Of a DNA stretch of 64,000 nt, positions 6,590-51,161 are shown one piece after another. Below the pieces are notes generated by a model. The model worked only from the letters and a program-made list of their open reading frames with translations. It had not been told where the DNA came from and made no database searches. The translations under genes were made by a program, and so were the position numbers. The stretch lies in IMG/VR virus record IMGVR_UViG_2744054962_000001; one strand, 5' to 3'. The stretch's first letter is position 1. The number at the start of each line of letters is the position of its first letter. Origin of the DNA: a virus. Lineage: Duplodnaviria; Heunggongvirae; Uroviricota; Caudoviricetes.

Positions 6590-7370
6590 TGTTTATACAA
6601 ACAAGAAAACAACTGAATAACAGATCAACGAAACGTCAATGCTTTCTCCCGATTTGGTCTAAAAAATTGACGTTTTCACACATCACTTCTTATACCCGTA
6701 ATTCTACGCAGCATATAGCGCCACAGCGTCCAAATTTCACCACAGACGACCCAACACACTACCAACAAAAACACACGCTCAAAATCGCTCCCGTTGCGTT
6801 ACACAACCATATAAACAACTTATTTTCAGGCATAACAAAACAACTAAATAACACACATGCCATTCCCCAAAACAACCAACCTCTTTATGGCAGGCTACCG
6901 AAAAGACCCACCTCTTCTCCCCAGGCTACCGGACAACCAACCTAACTTTCACAGGCAATCCGAAAACATTCATACGCGCGATACCCACGACACGCCATTC
7001 CCCAAACAGCGAAGAAACACCAGAATCACTGAAACCCCAACGAAGCCTGTAACAGCAAGGTTTCTCTCAATCCCAAAAGACACGAAACATAACAATCACG
7101 GGAAACGCCATTACCCAATACACGAATAACTACAAAAGCCCTTCACACTACAGACAAACAACTCAAACACAATAACGAAAGGAATCGCCCACCTGCCATT
7201 ACTCCATACACGGAGAAGAACAATCACCAAAACGACGAGAACACCCCATAGAAGAACCACCGCAAAACTAACGAAACCACATACACCGACAGGGAAAACA
7301 ACACACCCAATTCACCAACAGAAATAGTCGCCGTATAGAACGTTCTGGAAGGAGTGAGCATTAACGCCTA
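6590..7370 (+). other. A+C-rich, G-depleted stretch with no credible ORF (candidate untranslated RNA / Rho-loading region)
   Basis: Top strand dominated by A and C with CAA/ACA/CCAAC motifs; ORF-track ORFs here translate to low-complexity P/T/Q/N-rich peptides. Confidence 0.55.
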
Positions 7371-7537
7371 TAGAGAGGTTGAGACAGATAAAACACGAAG
7401 AAAACACAACATGTATAGCGAAGAAGCCAGGTATGTATAAGTGGGGAGGGAAGGAGGGGTGTCGCCTCCTTTTTCGTATTTATTCAACTCCTGATTTTAT
7501 CCCCCGTAACACCCCTACGGTCAGCCTTCGGTCCATA

Positions 7538-7676
7538 CAGGGAAAAGGTTGCATCCCGCTACAGAAACGGCTGGGTTGCCTTCGGGGAACGGCTGGAGGT
7601 TTTCAGGGAAACGGTCGAGTTGCCTGTGTGGATTTCGGGAAAAGGCTCGATGCCGGTTCAGGAACGGCGGCGTACC
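7538..7676 (+). repeat. Array of six direct repeats (iterons), consensus approx GGGAAACGGCTGGGTTGCC
   Basis: Six copies at roughly 21-32 bp spacing: 7538, 7562, 7583, 7604, 7636, 7659. Confidence 0.7.
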
Positions 7677-10662: not shown

Positions 10663-11145
10663 ATGAATTTTATCGCTACTGTAAACGCACCCGCACATGG
10701 CAATATCGCTGTAACGTTCTCTGACATTGAAAAACGAGTACTTGGTGCATGGCGCGACAATGAGACGGTAGAACTGTCAGCACAAGAAAAATGCATTATT
10801 GCACGCGACATCATTGGCAATCGTCGTTACTCGCGGGTATTTGAGAAAGCGTATGTGGTAAATTCTGGATTCGGAACGTTCGTCTTTCCGGTGCGCTCCG
10901 GGCGATTCTGCCAGTCCAAGCTGATTGAGTTCGCTACGCAGATTTCTGTCTGGATTAAAACTCAATCGTCGTTCAAATTTTCCGACGATGAAGCAGTATC
11001 GCAGGGGATGCGGATCGCCAACAATGCGATTAAATGCAAAAACATTACGTATACCGCTGGCGTTGATACATGGAAACTGTTTTGCGCTAACTTTATGCTG
11101 AATGTATACGCAAGCAACCGCATCCACATCCTTGATGGCGTGTAA
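10663..11145 (+). CDS. Hypothetical protein (160 aa)
   Basis: ORF with AAGGA RBS; followed by hairpin GGGCCAGAAACGGCCC. Confidence 0.55.
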   Translation: MNFIATVNAPAHGNIAVTFSDIEKRVLGAWRDNETVELSAQEKCIIARDIIGNRRYSRVFEKAYVVNSGFGTFVFPVRSGRFCQSKLIEFATQISVWIKTQSSFKFSDDEAVSQGMRIANNAIKCKNITYTAGVDTWKLFCANFMLNVYASNRIHILDGV

Positions 11146-11154
11146 CTGAGAAGA

Positions 11155-11275
11155 GGGCCAGAAACGGCCCTTTCTCTATAGCCACCAGCTGCCTCAGGGA
11201 AATTTTCAGAAACGGCGAGGAACGTATTCATAAGCCGACGGGAAACGGCCAGGATTTTTTCGGGAAACGGCTGCA
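11155..11275 (+). repeat. Second iteron cluster (GAAACGGC core, at least 4 copies)
   Basis: CAGAAACGGCCC, CAGAAACGGCGAGG, GGGAAACGGCCAGG, GGGAAACGGCTGCA. Confidence 0.55.
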
Positions 11276-11724
11276 TTCGCCTTTATGTAGAAAAAACATC
11301 GGGAAGCTGGTGGAATCCAACCAGCGGTTGTCGGACAGGTGAGCGGGGAAAATTATGATGACTTTCGTCACCTGAGACATCCAGATTTCTTTCGTAGCGT
11401 AATCACATACGTGATTAAGTGGTGTGATTATGTGAAAAATCACGCGCACATAATACGCGAGCGGATACAGAACAACACAAAATGCCGATCCGCGCCGACA
11501 AATAAACGCGGATCACATAGCAAGAATAAAAGCCAATGATTAGCCATACACCATAACGCAATATAACGCGATTTAAGCGCGTTAATGCGCTAAGTAATGG
11601 GTATGTACTGGTAAGGATATAAAAGCGCGTCTATGGCGTTATTTTGGCGCTTATTTTTATGTTGTTGGTGTGAGTCAAAGACAATAAAAAACGCGCTAAT
11701 GATGGCGCGTTATGGTGGGAGTAT

Positions 11725-11755
11725 TGGAAACGAAAAAAGCGCCCATAGTGGGCGC
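11725..11755 (-). terminator. Rho-independent terminator (hairpin GCGCCCATAGTGGGCGC, copy 1)
   Basis: 17-bp palindrome at 11739-11755 followed on minus strand by T-run; just after stop of 11762..11992. Confidence 0.65.
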
Positions 11756-11761
11756 TCGATT

Positions 11762-11992
11762 TTATTTATGTAAACTGATTTCAAATCCCATTTCTACAAA
11801 CGCTTTTAACATTAAAAATATATCAGCGTCATTCACGTCTGCTTTTTTTCGCTCCTGGTCGCTCAATAAGTCAATTTTGCGCGTCGTTTCATCTATAAGC
11901 TCGACTGCGCGCCCAGCGTAACCAGCGATCCCAGCGATGCGATTAACAAAATATTCATTGCGCACGTTAACGCCAGCGATAAGAATAAACAT
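11762..11992 (-). CDS. Hypothetical small protein (76 aa) bracketed by identical terminator hairpins
   Basis: AAGGAG RBS 7 nt before ATG; identical 17-bp hairpins on both sides. Confidence 0.55.
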   Translation of the reverse strand: MFILIAGVNVRNEYFVNRIAGIAGYAGRAVELIDETTRKIDLLSDQERKKADVNDADIFLMLKAFVEMGFEISLHK

Positions 11993-12005
11993 GATTAAGC
12001 TCCTT

Positions 12006-12026
12006 AAAAGCGCCCATAGTGGGCGC
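12006..12026 (-). terminator. Rho-independent terminator (hairpin GCGCCCATAGTGGGCGC, copy 2)
   Basis: Identical hairpin at 12010-12026 plus T-run, after stop of 12040..12690. Confidence 0.6.
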
Positions 12027-12039
12027 CAGATTCCATTAA

Positions 12040-12690
12040 TTACGCTTTGAAAGCATCAGCCAGATAGTTATAGAAATCATTTTTAATAAAGCGATATTGC
12101 TGCGTACCAGCTTTTGCGCTTCCCATTCCTTTGACTTTCTCAACAAGTCCAAGACGTTCGCAAAGATTGATAAGCTGGTTGGCTTGAGTGTATCCTGCGT
12201 CTAATTTTATTTCGTTGGCTTTTTTCGCTTCATTCATTAAATCGAAAACAGCTCCATTTGTGAACGTCTCGATCTCGTCGTTAATCATATCGATTAATGC
12301 GAATACACGAGATCCGGACATATCAGCGACGGAATAAACACACTTTCCAGCTTTAATGGATTTAACCAGATAAACCAGTTTTTCCAGAGAATAACTATTA
12401 GTCATTGCATCACGGAAAAATACTTCTGGCGCTTGTTTGCTTGCTTTGATCGCATAGTAGAAAACAGAGCATAATTTTTCGTCTTCTACTGCGTTTACGA
12501 CGTTGTTGATGAAGTAAGCAAGTTTGGTGGTTGCAGCTTGCATATTTGCTTTGTCTGCTTTTGTGTGCGTACCATTTTTATAATGTTCGTTATATGTTTG
12601 AGTTGCCAGATCTGCTTTTTCGCGCAGCTCGTCGGATACAATGGCAGCAGCTTCAATGATGGACTTTTTAGAAATGATAATGTTAGCCAT
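12040..12690 (-). CDS. Hypothetical protein (216 aa), AT-rich island
   Basis: Start moved to ATG 12690 (AAGGA RBS, 8-nt spacer) from track start 12699. Confidence 0.6.
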   Translation of the reverse strand: MANIIISKKSIIEAAAIVSDELREKADLATQTYNEHYKNGTHTKADKANMQAATTKLAYFINNVVNAVEDEKLCSVFYYAIKASKQAPEVFFRDAMTNSYSLEKLVYLVKSIKAGKCVYSVADMSGSRVFALIDMINDEIETFTNGAVFDLMNEAKKANEIKLDAGYTQANQLINLCERLGLVEKVKGMGSAKAGTQQYRFIKNDFYNYLADAFKA

Positions 12691-12985
12691 GATGGACATC
12701 CTTACGAAAAATTAAAATGAATTTATTTTTTACTGTCGTTAGCCAGCTCGCTTTCGACGAGTTCAATTATCAATACGTGAAAAAAGATTGCAAGTGTTTT
12801 TTTTAAATATTCTGCAGGGATGAAAGTCCTAGAAATAAAAGCGAGATCGTCGAAGGTGTTCCCTAAATAAATAATCAATTCGGGCCTTTAACCTTATATA
12901 TTTATACGGGGTGGCATTGAAAGAGTTTTAAATGAATGGCATGTAAAATAATAACCGGACTTAGCCGGTTATTACCCTTATAGAT

Positions 12986-13510
12986 TTAAAATGGAAGGAT
13001 TCGTTCAACCCAATCGAAGAAAACAAGTATTTTTCTGCCGTCTTCTAACTTAAGAGTGACCTGGCAAGCATCAACGCCTCTTGACACCCCTTCTATTTCA
13101 CGACCGTCTGTCATGTAGACCCTTATAGATTGGTCGTTTTGATAAGCCTTGCGACATATCGCAAAAAAGTCACGGCGTGATGGCTGATTGTCAACATAGT
13201 CTGGATGTATTGTTAGCCTACCTTTGAACTCGCGAGCAATGCCATCGATTACACCTGATTCAATTGTGCTAATGCGCTCAAGTGGGAGTCTTATACGATT
13301 TTCTTTATCATATGGAATCGGGCATAAATCTAGCTTATTGCGTGAAGGCATTGTCCCCTGAACGTACATGCAAAACACCTGACCGTCTTCAAGCGTGACT
13401 CTTACAGGAATGTTGTTCTTCCGCCAGAACATAAGTATGTTCTCAGCATGTTCGTAGTCTCGCGGCCAGACTTCAGCCGGTATGCCGTAGGTGATGTCCA
13501 ATGTTCTCAT
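12986..13510 (-). CDS. Hypothetical protein (174 aa), AT-rich island
   Basis: Stop overlaps upstream gene by 4 nt (coupled); no recognised motif. Confidence 0.55.
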   Translation of the reverse strand: MRTLDITYGIPAEVWPRDYEHAENILMFWRKNNIPVRVTLEDGQVFCMYVQGTMPSRNKLDLCPIPYDKENRIRLPLERISTIESGVIDGIAREFKGRLTIHPDYVDNQPSRRDFFAICRKAYQNDQSIRVYMTDGREIEGVSRGVDACQVTLKLEDGRKILVFFDWVERILPF

Positions 13511-14106
13511 TCTGATACTCTTAGAGGTGTTTTCAGCAACCCAAATTTAAATTCTTTGTTACCAACGACAAAGAAGGGAACCTCAACATAGATTTTTTTA
13601 TCGACGGATTTAGAGTTAGCTGTTTTCTGTATGTCACGAACGATACGTTTTGAGATATTTTCATCGATAAACAATACCTTTCCACTTGTATTCCCTTCAG
13701 CCTTGGCGTAAGTAACGATAGGCTCTTCATTGCCAACCCTAATGTTTACTTGGCAACCTGTTGTAGCCATTTCATCACAGTAAAGTGTGCCGTCTTGAAC
13801 TTCTAAAACAATTCCAGATGGCTTCATGGCTTCGTCAGAGCTTACATTAACGTTTTCTGGTACAGCGGTCCCGTTAATTTGCAACCGTAATCTTTCTTTT
13901 CCTCCATTAAGTATTGTTTCTTCTGCGTTGTCTGAGAATCTGAACCAAACTGGCTGATTCAGACCTCGTGATTTGTATTCTACTACGTCTTCGGAGGTAA
14001 ACATGCTGTACGTTTTTTGCATGTCATAGACGAAATCTGATAATGCGTTGGCGGAAAACGCCGGGAGGTATATACAAGCAAGGAGTAACGAAAGTTTCAT
14101 TTTCAT
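13507..14106 (-). CDS. Hypothetical exported protein (signal peptide), AT-rich island
   Basis: Track start 14121 is TTG; ATG 14106 gives MKMKLSLLLACIYLPAFSANA, a signal-peptide-like N-terminus. Confidence 0.5.
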   Translation of the reverse strand: MKMKLSLLLACIYLPAFSANALSDFVYDMQKTYSMFTSEDVVEYKSRGLNQPVWFRFSDNAEETILNGGKERLRLQINGTAVPENVNVSSDEAMKPSGIVLEVQDGTLYCDEMATTGCQVNIRVGNEEPIVTYAKAEGNTSGKVLFIDENISKRIVRDIQKTANSKSVDKKIYVEVPFFVVGNKEFKFGLLKTPLRVSE

Positions 14107-14121
14107 ATCATGATAATCCAA

Positions 14122-14610
14122 TTATTTAACATCACACTTTCTAAGTTTTTCTATTTGTTCTAATTTTTCATGATCATCATTTAGATTTCCTTCGACTATC
14201 TCCGTTTCAAGTTTGCTGATTAGCATGTTAAGTGCGTTGTAGTTATTGCATTTTACTTTGTAGGCGTAGTATGACCTTGTCCCTGGTTTTTGTACACCCA
14301 TATCATTAAAGTTAGAGCTTAAAGTATAACCTTCAAGTTCAACCCCTTTTATTGTAGGAAGAATTATATTTAATGGTTCTAATTTAAATGGGTAGATATA
14401 AATATGTGATATGAAGTACTCTTCTGAAGAGATTTTCTTCATGTCTTTTGTGATTGAAACTGAATATTTACGGTTCCGAGTGATATAAAATTTTGTACAT
14501 TTGTACGGCTCTAAGTTGAATAGATAATATTTTTCTTTAAAAAGAACATCTTTTCCATGTGATATTTTATGTCGTAAAGAGTTAATTATTTTGTTTATAG
14601 AAATACTCAT
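14122..14610 (-). CDS. Hypothetical protein (162 aa), strongly AT-rich
   Basis: K/N/I/Y-rich composition; abuts downstream gene. Confidence 0.5.
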   Translation of the reverse strand: MSISINKIINSLRHKISHGKDVLFKEKYYLFNLEPYKCTKFYITRNRKYSVSITKDMKKISSEEYFISHIYIYPFKLEPLNIILPTIKGVELEGYTLSSNFNDMGVQKPGTRSYYAYKVKCNNYNALNMLISKLETEIVEGNLNDDHEKLEQIEKLRKCDVK

Positions 14611-14720
14611 CTACAGTATCCGACCTTAGTTATCAATTGAAAAGCCTACAAATATCGTTCAGCCAATCAAGAAATTTTTTCAGCCGGAGGTGTGTGCTTC
14701 AAAAAATGTGATGAATGTCA

Positions 14721-14748
14721 CATGCAGGTGCTCTCATACACCTGCATG
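14721..14748 (-). terminator. Hairpin terminator separating two minus-strand operons
   Basis: Perfect palindrome CATGCAGGTG-N8-CACCTGCATG; T-run on minus strand nearby. Confidence 0.5.
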
Positions 14749-14755
14749 TAGACTA

Positions 14756-15322
14756 TTAATCATTCAATAATCTATATTTTCTTTTGATTAAATCTTCACC
14801 TTTTTTGGTGAACACAAAACCAAATTGCGATTTTTTGTTCAGCCTAAGGACTCTGTTATCCAACGCATCGGTTGATGGAATCAATGTTTGATCATCTATC
14901 CAATTTAGTAGCGTAAGAAAGTTCAGCAGCCTCAACGTTGTTGTGCGAAGCTCTTTCGATATATTTTCAATGCTGGCAATTCGTCTTTCTTTTTTCTCAG
15001 GTGGTACAGACAATTGTTCTTGAGGTTTCGTGGATAGATAATCAATTTCGTTTGCAGCATCGAATGATATGTGTGGCGTTATTTTGCTAAAAAAGCCTTT
15101 CGCTGACTCACTTGATAATAAACCAGACCTATTCATATCGTTTGTTATTCTGTACAGGAGTGGACTGTGTTTCATTTCAGGATAACGTTGATAAAAGTTA
15201 AGCAATTCAAAAGCAGCATTAGCGCCAACAAGAAAATCAGAAGGATCGCTGACTTTCCAGAAAGAATGATTTTTCTTAGCGCCAGTGGTGTCAACAAATG
15301 ATAATTCTTTTAACCAACTCAT
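14756..15322 (-). CDS. Hypothetical protein (188 aa)
   Basis: Start moved to ATG 15322 (AAGGAG RBS, 6-nt spacer) from track start 15355. Confidence 0.55.
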   Translation of the reverse strand: MSWLKELSFVDTTGAKKNHSFWKVSDPSDFLVGANAAFELLNFYQRYPEMKHSPLLYRITNDMNRSGLLSSESAKGFFSKITPHISFDAANEIDYLSTKPQEQLSVPPEKKERRIASIENISKELRTTTLRLLNFLTLLNWIDDQTLIPSTDALDNRVLRLNKKSQFGFVFTKKGEDLIKRKYRLLND

Positions 15323-15387
15323 GATGTGCTCCTTTCTAACAAGTGAGCACATCATAGAATTAGTAGATAGGGGGTAAATATGAAATG

Positions 15388-15666
15388 TTACGGCAACCTG
15401 CTCAGTATTTCCTCTAAATCTTTTTTTGTCATATTGGAGTTTTCATAGATGCGCATGATTTTCTCACGCGTCTTAGCGGAAACCCCAACAGCAGATGTGA
15501 CTTTGTCAAATTCAGCCATAGTCATCGTCTCCAGAATGGCATTGATAACTTCAGCTTTAGACATCTTGATTTTTTTCTCTTTGAGTTTTATTTGAAATTT
15601 TCCAAGTTTTTCATTGGCCTTATCAGACAATGCCACTTGGCAATAAGTTGTTTTCTTTTCGCTCAT
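15388..15666 (-). CDS. Hypothetical protein (92 aa)
   Basis: ORF begins 2 nt after helicase stop; K/E-rich. Confidence 0.5.
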   Translation of the reverse strand: MSEKKTTYCQVALSDKANEKLGKFQIKLKEKKIKMSKAEVINAILETMTMAEFDKVTSAVGVSAKTREKIMRIYENSNMTKKDLEEILSRLP

Positions 15667-15668
15667 AA

Positions 15669-17228
15669 CTAATCTCGTTTCAGAACTCCAAAATCGAATG
15701 CGCCATCAATAGGCAATACACCTTCTGCAAAGCCAGGTGTGGTGTCGATGATGTGTTTTCGCTCATAAGAGTGAGACAACAGGTATTTGTTGCTAATGTC
15801 AATGAAATCAGTGATAAAACACACGTTTGCCTGATTCTTCTTGGCTCGTAAGCCACGACCGACACGCTGTCTCATTTCAACTTCTGCTTTCCCACCACCA
15901 GCAAGAATGACCGCACCAACGCTTGGCACATCAACACCAACATCCAGAATAGTCGAGCCTATTAAAACATCTATTTCACCAGACGCTAAACTGTTCAGCT
16001 TTGCTTGCCTTGTCGACTGGTTCGATTCCCCATAAATGAAGTCAACTCTAAGGCCGGACTCTTTCATCATTTCCATCAGGATTTGCCCGTGGCGTTTAAG
16101 ACGAACCAGAGTCATACAATTGAGAGAATGTTGCTTATAGAGCAATGCTTCGCGAACAATGGCCTCATTACGTCCCAAATTATACACGATCCCCAACTGA
16201 TAAGCCTTTTGGTAGGCTGTGCTCATACCTACTCTAAAATTAAGGTGTTTGTTGGCAAGTTCCGCCTTGATTCTGACCTCGTCTGGCTTGTAAGCAACTT
16301 TATGATAAAGGAAGTACGGTTTTGCCAGAATGCCTCGATCAATCAGGTACTTTTCTGTGACTTTAATTTCAATTCGACCGGCCACAGCCATCAGACGCAT
16401 GTTGGCTTCTGTAGAATCCTTCATGAACGGCGTGGCCGTAAGCGCCAGACGATAGTCTGCGTTCACACATAATCTGGCAATGTCATAGAAATTAGAGCCT
16501 GAAGACTCATGCGCTTCTTCCAGAATAAGCAGAGACACACTTGAAAGGAAGCGTTTCACTAGCTCCCGACGTTTGAGGTGGTAGCTCTTTTTATCTGGTG
16601 TTGCATCGCGTGGTGGTTCTTCAAGGAAACTTGCCAGAGTTTGAACTGTAGCGACGTTGATATGTCGTGATACCTGGAACTCACCCGAGCCAATGACTCC
16701 AACCTTTTGGTCTTTTAACCACGGTTCGCCATTTTTGGCGCGGTAGTCGATGGATCTCTGGAAGTTTTCGGCCATTTGAAACATCAGAACAGAGCGGGTT
16801 GTTAAAAATAATGTCATTCGACCGATACGTGCAGCTGCTTTGCAGGCAACATTAGATTTCCCGCCACCAGTAGCGATCTGCGCAATCATCATTCCCTCTC
16901 GAACCAGTGTTTCCACAGTCTGATCCTGATACGCATAATCAGGATTGTATGGGAATGGGTTAACCGCCGGATTTGGTTTTCCAAGCGCCGGGGCTTTGTC
17001 TTTGCGGATATGAACACATTTGATGCCCGCCTTGTTCAAGTTCGCCGCTACAGGCTTGGCAAAGCCTGCAGGGAACGAGTTTTTACTCCAGTTGAACATT
17101 GTGCTTGTGCCCTTCCAGTCGCCAGTCTCGACTTCGTAGCTCAACATCTGTTGCACCAGTTGCTTTACCTTGTCATCTGCGCCAGAAATAAGCGCATTAA
17201 CTGCGTTAGATACAATCCGAACAGTCAT
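15669..17228 (-). CDS. Superfamily 2 (DEAD/DEAH-type) DNA helicase
   Basis: Walker A ATGGGKS, motif II LEEAHE, motif III TATP, motif VI QRVGRGLR. Confidence 0.85.
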   Translation of the reverse strand: MTVRIVSNAVNALISGADDKVKQLVQQMLSYEVETGDWKGTSTMFNWSKNSFPAGFAKPVAANLNKAGIKCVHIRKDKAPALGKPNPAVNPFPYNPDYAYQDQTVETLVREGMMIAQIATGGGKSNVACKAAARIGRMTLFLTTRSVLMFQMAENFQRSIDYRAKNGEPWLKDQKVGVIGSGEFQVSRHINVATVQTLASFLEEPPRDATPDKKSYHLKRRELVKRFLSSVSLLILEEAHESSGSNFYDIARLCVNADYRLALTATPFMKDSTEANMRLMAVAGRIEIKVTEKYLIDRGILAKPYFLYHKVAYKPDEVRIKAELANKHLNFRVGMSTAYQKAYQLGIVYNLGRNEAIVREALLYKQHSLNCMTLVRLKRHGQILMEMMKESGLRVDFIYGESNQSTRQAKLNSLASGEIDVLIGSTILDVGVDVPSVGAVILAGGGKAEVEMRQRVGRGLRAKKNQANVCFITDFIDISNKYLLSHSYERKHIIDTTPGFAEGVLPIDGAFDFGVLKRD

Positions 17229-17270
17229 AAACCTCTTTCCTTAGTGCCTTTTGTATGTTATTTGGCTATT

Positions 17271-17293
17271 ATAATAAGTAAGTGATTACTTAG
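17271..17293. promoter_or_regulatory. ATAAGTA-family motif (palindromic TAAGTAA-GTGA-TTACTTA) in divergent promoter region
   Basis: Between helicase (-) and ParB-like operon (+); member of repeated ATAAGTA motif family. Confidence 0.5.
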
Positions 17294-17310
17294 TGGATTG
17301 TAGCAATAAA

Positions 17311-17991
17311 ATGGATGTAAAAATCACGATTTTGCAGGTTGATGTTGCCAACCTTCGCCCGAATACCTGGAACACCAATTCGGTTGGTGCGCAGAATTTT
17401 GAAAAACTGAAAGGTTCTATCGAAAAATTGGGCTTTTTTAAGCCAATTTTGGCTCGTGAACTTGAAGATGGATTTTTTGAAATCCTCGGCGGCGAACATC
17501 GCTGGCGTGCCGCTATTGAGCAAGGAATTTCAACGGTTCCAGTGCTTTCTGTGGGCAAAATTAGCGATGTCGTAGCTAAACAGATGTCACTGGTGGACAA
17601 CGAGCGATACGGTGAAGACGACCAAATCGCATTGCAACGCTTCATTGAAGAAATTCAGTCAGAACTTGACTATCAACTGTCTGAAATCGCCCCGTATGAC
17701 GACGAAATCTCGATGGTTTTAGCAAAAGAGGCGGCAATCGACCTTGAAGCACTGGAGGCGTTGTCTCGTGGTAGTGATGAGCCTGTCGATACCGACAAAC
17801 GAGAGAAAACCGAACGTGTGGGGGCGGAACATCAGACCATGCGCTTCAAAGTAACTTTCGATGCGTCAGATCGCGTTGCAGAAACCATAAAAAACATCAT
17901 CAAAGAGCAGGCTATTAACACCGGTAATGAAATGGAGAACGCTGGTGAGGCTCTGGTGTGGCTGGTCGACTACTACAAGGAGCGTATGTAA
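17311..17991 (+). CDS. ParB-like nuclease-domain protein 1
   Basis: ParB/Srx-type N-terminal domain (GGEHRWRAA); ATG 17311 preferred over track GTG 17293. Confidence 0.65.
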   Translation: MDVKITILQVDVANLRPNTWNTNSVGAQNFEKLKGSIEKLGFFKPILARELEDGFFEILGGEHRWRAAIEQGISTVPVLSVGKISDVVAKQMSLVDNERYGEDDQIALQRFIEEIQSELDYQLSEIAPYDDEISMVLAKEAAIDLEALEALSRGSDEPVDTDKREKTERVGAEHQTMRFKVTFDASDRVAETIKNIIKEQAINTGNEMENAGEALVWLVDYYKERM

Positions 17992-18659
17992 TGACCAAAA
18001 AGTTTGAAATCGTATATCGCGACCCGGCAGATCTTATTCCCTATGAGATGAATGCCAAAAAGCATGATGAACAGCAGATCCGAGATCTAGCCGCAGCCAT
18101 TAAAAAGCGCGGATTTGACCAGCCAATTACGGTCGATAAGAACGACGTAATTATTACTGGCCACGGCCGCCGTGAGGCTGCAATTTTTGCTGGACTTGAG
18201 CGCGTACCGGTTATTGTTCGCGATGATCTCAGTGATGACGAGGTTCGTGCGAAGCGCCTTGAAGATAACCGACTTGCCAGCATTGATTACGATGCAATTA
18301 AGCTACAGAAAGAGCTTGAGTCGCTTGTTCTGGACGATATCGAGGTTTTCGGCTTTGAAGAGCGTGAGTTGAATGTTCTCGTTGGCAGCATGACAGAAGA
18401 AATGGACACCGACTCGCTAGTTATCGATCTTGGCGAAGAAACTAAACGACAGAAGGATGAACACACCGAGATCAGTCGTGAAGTTGCAGCGGAAGAAGTA
18501 CGTGTTGTCGACGTATTGGGCTTTAAAACGCTTCCTGCTGGCTCTGCCATTGTTGTTGGTGATTTGCTTGCCCACATGGAAGAAATGACGGGAGAAAGCG
18601 GGGTAGACGCATTTGTGGCATATGCGGAGAAGATCTCTTCCGGGGAGATGGCTGCATGA
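17958..18659 (+). CDS. ParB-like nuclease-domain protein 2
   Basis: Second ParB-type N-terminal domain (ITGHGRREAA); overlaps upstream gene by 34 nt; acidic C-terminal half. Confidence 0.6.
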   Translation: MAGRLLQGAYVMTKKFEIVYRDPADLIPYEMNAKKHDEQQIRDLAAAIKKRGFDQPITVDKNDVIITGHGRREAAIFAGLERVPVIVRDDLSDDEVRAKRLEDNRLASIDYDAIKLQKELESLVLDDIEVFGFEERELNVLVGSMTEEMDTDSLVIDLGEETKRQKDEHTEISREVAAEEVRVVDVLGFKTLPAGSAIVVGDLLAHMEEMTGESGVDAFVAYAEKISSGEMAA

Positions 18660-19321
18660 GCAAATACATCATCAACGTATCGTTTCAGACACGCGTAAAT
18701 AAAACCACGCGCACGTTGGAAATCGCTGAGTCGTTCGGGCTTGGCCTGGACGAAAAAGAGTGGACGCTTTACGACAATCTGGAGCTGGAAGTGAAGCAGG
18801 GCGATGTGGTGTACATCACCGGCCAATCCGGTTCCGGCAAATCAGTTGTGCTGCGCGAGTTGCAACGACAGATGAAGGATGAAGGGCTGTCTGTAGCCTC
18901 CATCGATGATTTTACCTTCGATAATGAGGTTAACGTCATCGATCAGTTGGGCAAAACGACCAGCGATGCGCTTGGGTTGTTATCTATGGCTGGTCTGAAC
19001 GATGCATATCTGTTTGTTCGCAAGCCTTCTGAAATGTCAGACGGTCAGAAATATCGTCTCAAGATTGCCAAACTGATTGAGTCAGGCGCTAAAGTGTGGG
19101 CTGCTGACGAGTTCGGTGCTGTTCTAGACCGTGTAACCGCTCAGGTTGTGGCATCTAACCTCCAGCGTGCCGCTCGAAAGGTTGGTGCAACGGTAATGGT
19201 GGCGACGACTCACGAAGACCTGAAGAACGCGCTGCGCCCGGATATGCAGATCACCAAGCACTACAAAGAACGCGTGAAGGTGGAATATCACAATGGTAGT
19301 CATGATGAGGTTCATTTATGA
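18656..19321 (+). CDS. Stand-alone ABC-type ATPase domain protein
   Basis: Walker A GQSGSGKS, signature MSDGQKYRL, Walker B VWAADEF, H-loop TTHEDL; ATGA overlap with neighbours. Confidence 0.75.
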   Translation: MSKYIINVSFQTRVNKTTRTLEIAESFGLGLDEKEWTLYDNLELEVKQGDVVYITGQSGSGKSVVLRELQRQMKDEGLSVASIDDFTFDNEVNVIDQLGKTTSDALGLLSMAGLNDAYLFVRKPSEMSDGQKYRLKIAKLIESGAKVWAADEFGAVLDRVTAQVVASNLQRAARKVGATVMVATTHEDLKNALRPDMQITKHYKERVKVEYHNGSHDEVHL

Positions 19322-20208
19322 CGGACATCATCATTAAACGCTACCGCCCTGAAGAGTTTCCGCGTCATCTGGACTTTCTGGAGCGAATGACTGTCACAAA
19401 GGGAACTGTAGAGGACTGGTACGCTCTTAAGTCGCTTCACTACAAAACAGACGGCAAACCTTTCGCGCCAACTTACTATCGCTGCGAACTTGATGACCGT
19501 CTGGTGGGCGTCGTGGTTATGGCTTACCCGAAACTACTGCTGGCACCTCGCCACCGCATGTTTCCTAAGTTGAAACCAACCACTAATACCACCGTGGCTA
19601 ACCAGTACTGGGGTCGGTACGTGAATAACAACTTTGCGGTGATCAGTCGCTCAGTTGTGGATACTCAGTATCGTGGCGTAGGCGTCTCTTATCGAATGAT
19701 TAACCTGGTTAGCAGGATGCATGACCGGCCAATCATTGAGATCCAGTCCTCGATGAGCAAATACAATCCCTTCGCCATGAAAGCAGGGTTTAAGTTCATC
19801 CGCCCTGAGCGACCGAAGAGCTATGAAAGTGCACTGCGTGTATTCCAGCGCCATTTCCGTTCCGACCCGGGTGATAACGAGGCGATCGTCAAAGAGTTGT
19901 TCGCAATGAGCGAGTCTCGTCGTCGCCGTGCACTGCGTGATCTGGTGGCGGACTACCACAAGAACAGTTCCCTGGCAAAAGCTGGGCGGAATCGTGGCAC
20001 GACGATTCAGGACATTGCCGACAGTCTGGTGGACGAGGCCAGCATTGTGAAGCTGCTCAAGGACATTCACAACCTGAGCTTTACGTCTCCGTTGTATGGT
20101 GTGTACCGAAACCCTGACTTTGGTCGTCGACTGCCTGACACGCTGCCACTGCTGGCATTCGACAAACAACCTTTGGATAAACCGTTAGAAATTGCTTTAC
20201 CGGCATAA
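19318..20208 (+). CDS. Hypothetical protein with weak GNAT-like motif (296 aa)
   Basis: YRGVGVSYRMINLV resembles GNAT motif A; ATGA overlap with ABC ATPase gene. Confidence 0.45.
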   Translation: MTDIIIKRYRPEEFPRHLDFLERMTVTKGTVEDWYALKSLHYKTDGKPFAPTYYRCELDDRLVGVVVMAYPKLLLAPRHRMFPKLKPTTNTTVANQYWGRYVNNNFAVISRSVVDTQYRGVGVSYRMINLVSRMHDRPIIEIQSSMSKYNPFAMKAGFKFIRPERPKSYESALRVFQRHFRSDPGDNEAIVKELFAMSESRRRRALRDLVADYHKNSSLAKAGRNRGTTIQDIADSLVDEASIVKLLKDIHNLSFTSPLYGVYRNPDFGRRLPDTLPLLAFDKQPLDKPLEIALPA

Positions 20209-47377: not shown

Positions 47378-47629
47378 ATGCTAGGCAGCCTGATGACAAA
47401 GCTAAAAGTTGCTTTGATTACGCTGGCTGCCGTTCTTTTCGTTCTTGTCGGCGCTTACACGATGGGCGGGAATGCGGCGCGACGAGCAATGGAAGAGAAG
47501 GCAAAACAGGAAGACAGAAAACGACTTCAAAACACAGTGAAAGTGGTGAATGAGACGAGCAGTAAAATACGTCAGAAAGATGCTTCTGCCGTTCATCGTG
47601 AGTTGTATGATAAGTGGGTGCGTCATTAA
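47378..47629 (+). CDS. i-spanin (Rz-like)
   Basis: N-terminal TM helix then charged coiled coil; o-spanin-like gene embedded in +1 frame. Confidence 0.6.
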   Translation: MLGSLMTKLKVALITLAAVLFVLVGAYTMGGNAARRAMEEKAKQEDRKRLQNTVKVVNETSSKIRQKDASAVHRELYDKWVRH

Positions 47630-47765
47630 ACCACAAACAGCCAGCGTGTTGTTCTGCGATGGGGCTGAGCCTATCTATATCAGCAATAATGATGTAATGA
47701 CTGAAGAAACCGAACGCCAAATCCTTTTTCACAATACGATGGGAGAGAGGGTTTGTGGTTGGTGA
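47550..47765 (+). CDS. o-spanin (Rz1-like lipoprotein)
   Basis: Lipobox ISGC after short hydrophobic leader (real start possibly ATG 47580); overlaps i-spanin 3' end. Confidence 0.55.
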   Translation: MRRAVKYVRKMLLPFIVSCMISGCVIKPQTASVLFCDGAEPIYISNNDVMTEETERQILFHNTMGERVCGW

Positions 47766-47772
47766 TGTCGAA

Positions 47773-47794
47773 GTTCCCCTCAAATGAGGGGAAC
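47773..47794. terminator. Bidirectional hairpin between lysis genes and toxin gene
   Basis: GTTCCCCTC-AAAT-GAGGGGAAC. Confidence 0.55.
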
Positions 47795-47797
47795 ACA

Positions 47798-48319
47798 TTA
47801 TTCTTCGAACAATTTTTCGATAGATTTTGTAGGATAGAACAAAGAACGCTCGTTGTTACCAACCAGCTGGATAAAGCCTAAACTTTTATAAAACGCCTTG
47901 GCTTTGTCATTTAACGCCTCAACGAAAAGTCCATGAATGCCTACAGCAAGAGATGCATTGTACACAACGCGCATTGCATGTGTTACAAGCATTGAGCCAA
48001 ATCCTTGACCTTGAAGGGACTTGTCCAAAGCCAGCCTACCCAAAGTAACACTTGGAACATTCCGATAAGGAACCTTCTTTTGTTTGCTTCTTGAAGGTAA
48101 GGACTCCTTTTCAAAACAACTACCTGACAAAGTGTAATATCCTAACACTTTTGGCCTTTCTTCTTGAGTGCAAAGCACATAAGCACGAAGAATTTTTCCC
48201 TCATGCTGCCTTTTTAAGTGGTTGGCTAAAAAGGCGTTTAGTGACTCTTCGCCGCAATCAAAACCGTTTAGATCATAATCTTTCTCTCCAGAGAAAATCT
48301 CTATCGTTGTATTGCTCAC
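47798..48319 (-). CDS. GNAT-family acetyltransferase toxin (TacT/AtaT-like)
   Basis: GNAT motif LQGQGFGSML; GTG start 7 nt after antitoxin stop. Confidence 0.75.
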   Translation of the reverse strand: MSNTTIEIFSGEKDYDLNGFDCGEESLNAFLANHLKRQHEGKILRAYVLCTQEERPKVLGYYTLSGSCFEKESLPSRSKQKKVPYRNVPSVTLGRLALDKSLQGQGFGSMLVTHAMRVVYNASLAVGIHGLFVEALNDKAKAFYKSLGFIQLVGNNERSLFYPTKSIEKLFEE

Positions 48320-49978: not shown

Positions 49979-49993
49979 AGTGGAGTGATAATT

Positions 49994-50746
49994 ATGCATT
50001 CGTTAGTATTTGCATTTAAAAACATACTCAAGAATGTTATAAACATACTAGGGATGTTAAATATTTTTTTGTCTGTGAGGGTGAGGAGAAAAGATATAAA
50101 AGATAAATTAAAGGAACTTAACAAAGAAAAAGAACAATTAAAAAGCGAAGAAATTATTATTGATTTATACAAGAAAAAACTCGCATCTAGCAAGGGGAAA
50201 GCTAATGATAAAATCAAAGGAAAAATAATTCACTATATTATTGCTAGAGAGTTGGGGAATGATCCTGATAATGAAGATTTGCGACATAATCTTTTTACAA
50301 AGATAAAAGAATCAGAAGAACAGGTTGAAGTTCTGGTTCATCAAAGAGAAGTAAGTGAGCAGGCGAACAAAAAAGAAACGGTTGTCAATTTGTTTTTATT
50401 GTATGAAAAAAATAAATTGTTTAAAGCTAAGGGGTTGGCTGTGTTTCTTATAGTTATAAACTTAATTATAGTTGCGACTCTCGATCTTCCAGCTTGGTCA
50501 TTGATTATAAGTTTTTTTATTCTCTCTTTGATTATGTTGAAAGATCAGATACTTACTATTCGTGTCTCTAAAGGATATTTTGGCACAAGTGCGTATGAAG
50601 CGGTTCAATTGCTTAAATTCATCAGAGAAAATTCAGACAAATTTGACTCAGATGATAATGACGGTAGCCCACGACGGATATTGAATCCGAAGGGAACAAC
50701 AAAAAAATCAGACAACCTATTCGATAAAGGGTGGCAAAATGTTTGA
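49994..50746 (+). CDS. Hypothetical membrane protein (250 aa), AT-rich
   Basis: GGAG RBS; K/E-rich N-terminal region then two hydrophobic segments. Confidence 0.5.
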   Translation: MHSLVFAFKNILKNVINILGMLNIFLSVRVRRKDIKDKLKELNKEKEQLKSEEIIIDLYKKKLASSKGKANDKIKGKIIHYIIARELGNDPDNEDLRHNLFTKIKESEEQVEVLVHQREVSEQANKKETVVNLFLLYEKNKLFKAKGLAVFLIVINLIIVATLDLPAWSLIISFFILSLIMLKDQILTIRVSKGYFGTSAYEAVQLLKFIRENSDKFDSDDNDGSPRRILNPKGTTKKSDNLFDKGWQNV

Positions 50747-51161
50747 CCTTGACGCCATCACTAAGTTCTTAAATCAGTGTTTTGATCTACTTTTGCTCAA
50801 GCAGCCTTTAAGAACTGTTTTCGGAATACTGATTGGTTTCATTATTTTTGTTTTTGTTTACACGTTTAGGTTTGCGATAGCTCAAGATTTTTATGAAATA
50901 GATGGTGTGCATTACGCTGCATGTTTCGTCATCGGTGTTTTAGTTGTTCACACAAGAACATTTTTTGACGTTATCAAGGGCACCGCAGTTGATGAAGAAA
51001 TAGATAGTATGATCAGAGTTATTACGAAGCAGCCACACCTATCTAACCATCAAAAAAACATAATGATTGCTGAAATACTTCAAAAAGAAATTGCAGCCAT
51101 AAGTCAAAAGAGATTGGATAAAGTTGCACAAGAAATAACGGAGAAAAAGACAACTGATTAA
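50739..51161 (+). CDS. Hypothetical membrane protein (140 aa), AT-rich
   Basis: Start overlaps upstream stop; two predicted TM helices. Confidence 0.5.
   Translation: MFDLDAITKFLNQCFDLLLLKQPLRTVFGILIGFIIFVFVYTFRFAIAQDFYEIDGVHYAACFVIGVLVVHTRTFFDVIKGTAVDEEIDSMIRVITKQPHLSNHQKNIMIAEILQKEIAAISQKRLDKVAQEITEKKTTD

Follow-up and report, generated by a model that had tools for sequence, protein, structure and literature searches.

The stretch examined here, positions 12040 to 15666 of a 64,000-nucleotide (nt) window of tailed-phage DNA (IMG/VR record IMGVR_UViG_2744054962_000001), carries six consecutive open reading frames (ORFs) on the minus strand, all of which were present in the ORF list and in the sequence itself at the places given in the original prediction, where they had been read as an AT-rich island of horizontally acquired accessory genes. 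In order of transcription they encode p92, p199, p162, p204, a 174-amino acid (aa) FljA-family protein, and p216, the names giving the lengths of the products. A 6-kb query around this region matched 249 Escherichia coli plasmids and zero chromosomes, the top match being pLAU-OXA1 (98.5% over 100% of the query), and it also matched the phages Cyrano (the phage-plasmid of strain LF82), CMS-2020a, and PhiR41_1, with Salmonella phage SSU5 at 79%. These plasmid and phage matches identify the window as an SSU5/pHCM2-type phage-plasmid of E. coli. Elements of the SSU5/pHCM2/pMT1 type are frequently found in clinical E. coli, Shigella, Salmonella Typhi, Klebsiella, and Yersinia pestis, and the majority of their genes carry only a hypothetical annotation; near-identical RefSeq and GenBank records treat the six genes in this way except for the 174-aa gene, labeled a "transcriptional regulator", which the SSU5 annotation calls "putative repressor of phase 1 flagellin". 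The element, its genes, and the existence of variable accessory and defense regions in SSU5-group phage-plasmids are already documented (PMC7969092; bioRxiv 10.1101/2025.09.12.675607). We find that the stretch is a fixed regulatory scaffold with an internal recombination slot and not an acquired six-gene island.

The product sizes proposed at the outset fit likely start codons (Table 1), the overlap at 13507/13510 is a real ATGA, and the last gene does abut the helicase, p92 starting 2 nt after the helicase stop codon. The proposal that the genes are bounded by hairpin terminators held for the 3' side, where a hairpin follows p216 and recurs after the 76-aa gene, but not for the 5' side, where p92 lies directly behind the helicase. 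When judged as intrinsic terminators (a GC-rich hairpin plus a U-tract), the structure at 11737-11757 is clear and that at 12945-12978 plausible, the one at 12009-12027 has a weak U-tract, and the hairpin at 14717-14753 has none adjacent to it. Because strong internal hairpins follow the 174-aa and 199-aa genes, the stretch falls, by predicted terminators, into at least three or four transcription units. The hairpin GGCGCCCACTATGGGCGC occurs twice as a 35-nt direct repeat (D1) at 86% (11735-11769 and 12006-12040, 271 nt apart) that brackets the 76-aa gene; this gene is present in most E. coli-type relatives, some of which have a 67-aa or a diverged 75-aa gene instead, and the arrangement suggests that the extra 67-75-aa gene found here in some relatives arose by insertion or duplication mediated by the repeated hairpin. 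An Rfam scan of 11000-17500 with E up to 1 gave no match.

Table 1. Features of the conserved minus-strand block and its surroundings (window coordinates; GC, guanine-plus-cytosine fraction, with z computed against 42 other genes; SD, Shine-Dalgarno sequence)
Feature	Coordinates	Strand	GC (z)	Details
Intrinsic terminator	11737..11757	-		9-bp GC-rich stem and U6; closes the leftward block after the 76-aa gene; terminator scan; fold -15.5 kcal/mol, z -4.2
76-aa ORF, phrog_1585	11762..11992	-		Outside the coordinates first proposed, within the same conserved block
Hairpin after p216, UUUUAAGG	12009..12027	-		Closely resembles the 11737-11757 terminator, U-tract weaker; fold -14.1 kcal/mol, z -1.6
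p216/219, phrog_1513, core	12040..12699	-	0.391 (-1.9)	219 aa; likely 216 aa from ATG 12690 with a good SD
Palindrome/5' stem-loop	12735..12758	-		p216 leader; conserved in ~40 distinct leaders
Sigma-70-like promoter candidate for p216	12766..12793	-		TTGCAA, 16 nt, GATAAT; consensus scan 9/12
Terminator-like hairpin and U-rich tail after the FljA-family gene	12945..12978	-		Fold -15.3 kcal/mol, z -3.3
FljA-family protein, phrog_1444	12986..13510	-	0.444 (-0.6)	174 aa; Pfam PF03614
p204, phrog_18942, variable cargo	13507..14121	-	0.393 (-1.8)	204 aa; 197-200 aa from ATGs 14100/14106
p162, phrog_25050, variable cargo	14122..14610	-	0.288 (-4.3)	162 aa
Hairpin right after the p199 stop codon	14717..14753	-		Fold -24.7 kcal/mol, z -5.2; without adjacent U-tract
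p199, phrog_13473, variable cargo	14756..15355	-	0.363 (-2.5)	199 aa; 188 aa from ATG 15322 with an AAGGA SD
p92, phrog_1466, core	15388..15666	-	0.373 (-2.3)	92 aa, small, basic
Superfamily 2 (SF2) DEAD/DEAH-type helicase, upstream anchor	15669..17228	-		Pfam ResIII, DEAD, Helicase_C; 82-100% aa identity across relatives

The relatives compared were six annotated ones, Y. pestis pMT1, a Klebsiella pneumoniae plasmid, and a Citrobacter freundii contig, and further loci found with the FljA alignment came from species-representative genomes (9) and IMG/VR (80); synteny counts cover 94 SSU5-like loci. The order helicase, p92, slot A, FljA-family gene, slot B, p216 was found in all 94 of these, with the FljA match full-length and free of stop codons in 93, and the same order was seen in pMT1 and a K. 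pneumoniae plasmid. By tblastn, the FljA-family gene was present in 835 plasmids (345 from Klebsiella, 229 from Escherichia, 92 from Enterobacter, 62 from Yersinia, and 60 from Salmonella). With an order conserved in 94 of 94 loci, p216, the FljA-family gene, and p92 belong to the fixed part of the element, and this extends to the plasmids of Klebsiella and Y. pestis. The other three genes come and go: among the ~249 E. coli relatives, megablast found p204 in 81, p162 in 35, and p199 in 87. The comparison of presence and absence in related genomes, which the original prediction had proposed as a check, thus divides the six genes evenly, and the description as horizontally acquired accessory cargo is supported for p204, p162, and p199, given their variable presence and the recombination slot in which they lie, and is not supported for the three scaffold genes. 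The contrary outcome named at the same time, conservation of the homologues as core replication genes in all relatives, was observed for the 216-, 174-, and 92-aa genes, though these are not replication genes. Separating the scaffold (helicase, p92, FljA-family gene, and p216) from the cargo tells annotators and experimenters which genes are core regulators and which are strain-specific accessory genes.

Slot A can be empty (115-134 nt) or as long as 2.9 kb. In ~24 architectures the two slots together hold ~22 ORF families, of which a few are short ORFs that are probably spurious. The most frequent family is a DUF2846-like lipoprotein (52 loci), followed by p199 (29 loci), a 100-aa secreted Cys-rich protein (22 loci, with a related 99-aa protein in 10), p204 (21 loci), p162 (19 loci), a 266-aa lipoprotein (10 loci), and a 118-aa secreted protein (9 loci). 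Rare fillings include a 377-aa HNH protein (L029 3833-4966; Pfam HNH, 3e-6; PADLOC mREase_IV, 3e-5), a 343-aa SMEK_N protein (L098/L099 ~6631-7662; 8e-30; also PADLOC Aga_REase), and a 607-aa HEPN_LA2681 protein (L097 7988-9811; 7e-37), which are recognizable conflict-system parts at this hotspot in sister elements. The filling of the window, p199 p162 p204, was found in 10 loci and in Citrobacter. Where the window departs from its relatives, the breakpoints are gene boundaries: Cyrano has a lipoprotein in place of p162 and p204 (window 13498-14642), plasmid D4 lacks p199 and p162 (window 14107-15384), and similarity to p48956_3 is lost over window 13498-15418. Slot A has ~20 alternative fillings, in which whole genes are swapped, and the set p199, p162, p204 is one of them. 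As a separate observation, slot B carries in about one-third of the loci (e.g., the L004 6935-7186 region and L008 4023-4322) members of two distantly related ~100-aa secreted Cys-rich families (hhalign 83%), which the window lacks.

The claim that the stretch is more AT-rich than the flanking phage genes was borne out on average, its GC content being 0.375 against 0.459 for the window with only 0.2% of same-length windows as low, but the effect is uneven (Table 1): the 174-aa gene is not different from the rest of the phage, and the core 216- and 92-aa genes are as AT-rich as the cargo. Relative to the Citrobacter counterpart, the proportion of synonymous sites that differ (pS, 0.78-0.85) is saturated and that of nonsynonymous sites (pN) is 0.23-0.36. 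With pN far below pS, all six are real coding genes under purifying selection, and the divergence is ancient. The Citrobacter genes are just as low in GC (0.284 for the 162-aa gene, 0.387 for a 179-aa gene, and 0.372 for the 216-aa gene), and because this counterpart shares the low GC at saturated synonymous sites, the AT-richness is an old property of the block and does not point to recent transfer. Its probable importance is for H-NS-type silencing and condition-dependent expression, not as a mark of recent arrival. These data bear on the idea that all six genes form one acquired accessory island serving superinfection exclusion, abortive infection, or anti-defense. Its low GC, the variation of three genes among close relatives, the HNH, SMEK, and HEPN proteins and many exported proteins held by the slot in relatives, and the variable defense systems reported for SSU5-supergroup elements (bioRxiv 10.1101/2025.09.12.675607) are all in keeping with such an island; as a six-gene unit, however, it is refuted by the universal, syntenic conservation of three of the six genes, one of which belongs to a known regulator family, and we consider it very unlikely. 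Internal terminator-like hairpins divide the region, and the AT-richness is shared with Citrobacter. No integrase or transposase is present in the annotation of the near-identical records, and the only repeat is the duplicated terminator hairpin, with no flanking direct repeats. None of the six proteins has a credible match in PADLOC-DB 2.0, the sole match being SspC for p199 at chance level (E 0.007, 12 bits).

The earlier statement that none of the six genes shows a recognizable motif does not hold for the 174-aa ORF, which matches Pfam PF03614 (FljA, repressor of phase-1 flagellin) end to end, residues 5-171 aligning to positions 1-170 of the 170-position profile with 270.1 bits (cut-off 24) and E 9.1e-81; the match to phrog_1444 has E 6e-98. 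The protein is 34-35% identical to bona fide Salmonella FljA (35% for the one encoded in a genuine hin-fljB-fljA locus, L009), with 45 invariant columns across 8 sequences, and by sequence it is a full-length member of the FljA family. FljA-like repressors of fliC, flkB and fljA54, act in E. coli (PMC5422975; PMC3378880). The family is described in two ways: PMC10399903 calls FljA a transcriptional repressor of fliC, and the title of Yamamoto and Kutsukake (2006), as it stands in the references of PMC3378880, places FljA control at the post-transcriptional level. The Cyrano orthologue is expressed in the lysogen; in published RNA-seq of Cyrano in E. coli LF82 (log2 fragments per kilobase per million [FPKM], floor 2.32; PMC9928086 S1 Table), it rises ~16-fold from 4.2 in LB to 7-8 (up to 8.1, in macrophages) in Dulbecco's modified Eagle's medium (DMEM) and macrophages.

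Full-length membership, motifs invariant with bona fide FljA, the activity of such repressors in E. coli, and this expression would all suit a role in lysogenic conversion, in which the FljA-family gene shuts off host FliC and yields non-flagellated lysogens or an altered H-antigen, the p216 leader not being its target; the loss of FliC could protect against flagellotropic phages or TLR5 recognition. We think this unlikely. Purifying selection keeps the gene intact in 345 plasmids of Klebsiella and in pMT1 of Y. pestis, and both are classically non-flagellated hosts. True fljA adjoins fljB and hin, whereas in pLAU-OXA1, Cyrano, SSU5, pMT1, and the Klebsiella plasmid the annotation of the ~3-6 kb to each side of the gene contains neither a flagellin nor a hin gene. 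The literature search found no paper linking SSU5/pHCM2/pMT1 elements to fljA function or motility. A conserved host fliC leader as target is also hard to square with the allelic diversification of the gene on near-identical backbones, as follows.

Among 787 locus pairs with helicases at least 98% identical, the FljA-family protein had a median identity of 0.79 (minimum 0.66), against 0.99 for p216 and 0.96 for p92. The FljA alleles form 14-18 clusters at 90% identity, with pN/pS between alleles of 0.17-0.33; from this diversity on near-identical backbones and the pN/pS values it follows that the alleles are of old origin, functional, and have been exchanged between backbones. The 100-nt leader before the p216 start codon varies in step with them: in pairs with p216 at least 95% identical, the median identity of this leader was 0.98 for the same FljA allele versus 0.79 for different ones. 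Agreement between FljA allele type and leader type, expressed as adjusted mutual information (AMI), was 0.95 for all loci and 0.89-1.00 at three thresholds for the 43 loci without an insertion in slot B. By comparison, the intervening 193-225 nt agreed with either flank at 0.60-0.78, and the p216 coding sequence gave 0.51-0.79. The window and plasmid D4 illustrate the pattern, p204 and p216 coding regions being 98-100% identical and two patches being divergent, the FljA interior (13031-13470, 48-89%) and 12671-12790 (60-82%), with the DNA between them at 87-96%.

Within the leader, the promoter-like GATAAT of the p216 candidate promoter is kept in nearly all related sequences. The palindrome or stem-loop, of the type GTCGAAAGCG-N4-6-CGCTAACGAC, lies 8-9 nt downstream of the putative p216 -10 box and is unique in the window; RNAalifold on the leaders predicts an 8-bp helix with compensatory changes in 3 pairs. 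A variable AT-rich stretch, the SD TAAGGA, and the ATG of p216 then follow. The covariation of FljA allele and leader suggests an allele-specific repressor-target pair. It could also reflect pure linkage, with the FljA-family gene and the adjacent intergenic DNA swapped together with the slot cargo and the target located at some other site of the phage-plasmid or the host. The FljA-family gene and the leader are only ~200 nt apart, FljA allele types correlate with cargo type, and independent events are few; the intervening terminator region may be conserved or homogenized for its own reasons. Against linkage stands the intervening DNA, which agrees less with either flank than the flanks do with each other at all three thresholds (AMI 0.67-0.78 against 0.89-1.00), and in 67 pairs it is at least 90% identical with both flanks diverged (FljA below 85%, median leader identity 0.80). 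On this evidence, linkage as the whole explanation seems somewhat unlikely.

The gene that follows this leader encodes a protein with only 24 clusters among 1.84 billion representatives. In the structural model, p216 has a helical N-terminal domain and a C-terminal winged-helix-like domain, and it probably binds DNA. Between Cyrano and the window the products of the 216-, 174-, 199-, and 92-aa genes are 99-100% identical in aa sequence, and in the Cyrano lysogen p216 is near-silent, at 2.3-2.8 in LB, reaching 5.6 only at 6 h in macrophages (PMC9928086). The same data set gives 6.3-9.9 for the p92 orthologue CYRAN_117, the highest of the block, which is listed as a moron 12-fold over background, 5.0-8.4 for the helicase, 5 rising to 9.4 for the lipoprotein that adjoins the FljA-family gene, and 2.3-5.9 for p199 (PMC9928086). 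The putative master repressor of Cyrano is listed as a different gene, CYRAN_45 (PMC9928086).

We propose that the locus is a scaffold of helicase, p92, slot A, FljA-family gene, slot B, p216, and p76, in which the FljA-family protein represses the p216 leader and the slots carry accessory genes expressed in lysogeny; we put the probability of this reading at roughly 0.5. Like Salmonella FljA, the FljA-family protein would repress via the leader of a specific mRNA, its main target being the leader of the neighboring p216 gene, and this allele-specific repression, similar to immunity, would silence p216, with its predicted helical and winged-helix-like domains, during lysogeny. In flagellated hosts the FljA-family protein may in addition repress fliC. 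The proposal draws on the precedent of FljA acting on fliC, the covariation of allele and leader, and the expression of p216 at or near the floor in the lysogen of Cyrano.

Several points weigh against this proposal. Low p216 expression in Cyrano fits any repressor. The covariation could come from two fast-evolving markers of one recombination tract, with the intervening terminator region homogenized or constrained, and it reflects few independent allele switches (~10-18 allele types). The leader hairpin or palindrome is nearly identical across many FljA alleles, so that allele specificity would have to lie in the variable AT-rich part, and the palindrome may just as well function as a DNA operator, for either p216 itself or p92. 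The candidate view of FljA as a tandem Sm/Hfq-like protein was rejected, the Pfam Hfq match (E 5.6e-4) being below threshold and hhalign comparisons of one half with the other and with Hfq not being significant.

All six genes belong to PHROGs families, but p216, p204, p162, p199, and p92 received no functional assignment from Pfam, NCBIfam, PADLOC, or PHROGs, the last giving only "unknown function". For the three cargo proteins, searches of PADLOC, Pfam, NCBIfam, and the PDB returned no functional match. For all five unassigned proteins, phmmer and profile hmmsearch against PDB sequences, with 9-sequence profiles for the p162 and p199 families, gave nothing significant. The cargo families are confined to Enterobacteriaceae SSU5-like elements (3, 15, and 10 clusters). 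The N-terminus of p204, MK-LSLLLACIYLPAFSANA/LSD, has a basic n-region, a hydrophobic core, and an AxA cleavage motif, with the KD19 maximum at residue 10; this signal is kept in 6 of 8 aligned homologues, the shorter N-termini of P0012 and P0015 lacking part or all of it, and Cys-108 and Cys-116 of the mature part are invariant. From these sequence features and a structural model, p204 is predicted to be a Sec-exported periplasmic beta-sandwich protein, its gene ATGA-coupled to the FljA-family gene. The alternative that p204 is a lipoprotein (LLAC) was rejected in favor of signal peptidase I cleavage, as homologues conserve the AxA site and the long hydrophobic core but not the Cys. The protein only resembles the IalB periplasmic beta-sandwich (PDB 3dtd) and is not a member of that family, having 12% identity, a generic fold in a moderate-confidence model, and no Pfam IalB match. 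If slot cargo is accessory material expressed in lysogeny, p204 may act on the envelope from the periplasm, exclusion or receptor masking being its most likely role.

Both p162 and p199 appear to be basic cytoplasmic proteins. The rarest and most AT-rich of the cargo, p162 is close to being an orphan, 5.8 billion proteins having yielded only 3 clusters. RefSeq annotates its gene in pLAU-OXA1 (L001 5623-5943) as encoding 106 aa; because conservation in homologues (80% and 57-58% identity) extends over all 162 aa, N-terminus included, the true gene is the longer ORF. The p162 family matches a family of 180-190-aa proteins (F12) with an hhalign probability of 93.7% (E 2e-7), and F12 itself matches the first 180 residues of the HNH protein (blastp 6e-6, hhalign 65%), which in locus L029 sits at the slot position of p162, directly after p199. 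These matches point to a distant relationship between p162 and the N-terminal domain of the HNH protein at the same position. In the surveyed loci p162 always follows p199, which also occurs alone; the p199 family was found only on SSU5-like contigs and, even with a 9-sequence profile, it had no Pfam or PDB match. Because p162 is related to a domain of the nuclease that replaces it in a sister element, p199 and p162 may form a cytoplasmic conflict module, possibly directed at nucleic acids. The scaffold protein p92 evolves rapidly between lineages (36-60% identity where the helicase has 82-93%). A ribbon-helix-helix (RHH)-type N-terminus suspected in p92 from its sequence pattern was dropped after no Pfam RHH match was obtained.

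What may be new here is the pairing of the FljA-family gene with the p216 leader; the rest is an ordinary cargo slot and conserved regulators of a known element. If the pairing is true, it gives a new role to a family known only from flagellar phase variation and offers a handle on life-cycle control or mutual exclusion of elements; if false, the region is an ordinary moron or cargo hotspot of a well-sampled element. A broader version extends the proposal to the whole SSU5 supercluster, with the FljA-family gene and p216 leader as an allele-specific, probably post-transcriptional pair resembling a second immunity or compatibility determinant, and with the slots on either side as a source of new envelope-acting and nucleic-acid-directed conflict genes, including p199/p162, a p162-related domain being fused to HNH in a sister element. 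We regard this extension as doubtful.

Three other segments of the window were recorded in passing. Divergent from the helicase, positions 17293-20208 (plus strand) hold two consecutive ParB_N-domain genes, an ABC-type ATPase gene, and a 296-aa gene without a Pfam match, an arrangement that all relatives keep and that a partition-like cluster does not usually show. At 47418-48319 (minus strand), a 173-aa GNAT acetyltransferase (Pfam Acetyltransf_1/7) comes directly after a 126-aa ORF, and the pair resembles a KacT-type toxin-antitoxin pair, Cyrano CYRAN_26/27, reported as lysogeny-expressed morons. A second, still more AT-rich patch at 49985-51161 (plus strand) consists of overlapping ORFs of 253 and 140 aa (GC 0.31 and 0.35); neither has a Pfam match, the 253-aa ORF has only chance-level matches in PADLOC, and the patch is probably another cargo site.

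Three known systems bear comparison with this locus. The accessory (moron/defense) hotspots of temperate phages and of P1- and SSU5-group phage-plasmids share with it the fixed flanks with many alternative fillings, the breakpoints at gene boundaries, the AT-rich cargo, the neighboring genes expressed in lysogeny, and the occasional nuclease or HEPN cargo. They differ in that the slot here is split in two by a universal and itself hypervariable regulator gene and holds mostly small exported proteins, the cargo of the window matching no known defense or anti-defense family in PADLOC. Salmonella FljA (fljBA) and E. coli FlkB are related to the 174-aa protein over its full length, sharing the motifs DI-YG-AE-WPRDY, PSRRD-F-IC, and FDWV-RI, and their genes are likewise the last of a short operon, after a gene for an exported or surface protein. 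Unlike them, the gene described here has no neighboring flagellin or invertase gene, is a fixed part of a phage-plasmid even in non-flagellated hosts, and is highly polymorphic on near-identical backbones, and its proposed target is the p216 leader instead of fliC. The third comparison is with phage immunity modules that contain allele-specific repressor-target pairs, such as the lambdoid immunity regions and immI of P1/P7. Like these, the FljA-family gene is present in all relatives, shows deep allelic divergence on near-identical genomes, and covaries with an adjacent control region; it differs in that its family has a member described, in the title noted above, as acting post-transcriptionally, and in that the putative master repressor of Cyrano is another gene.

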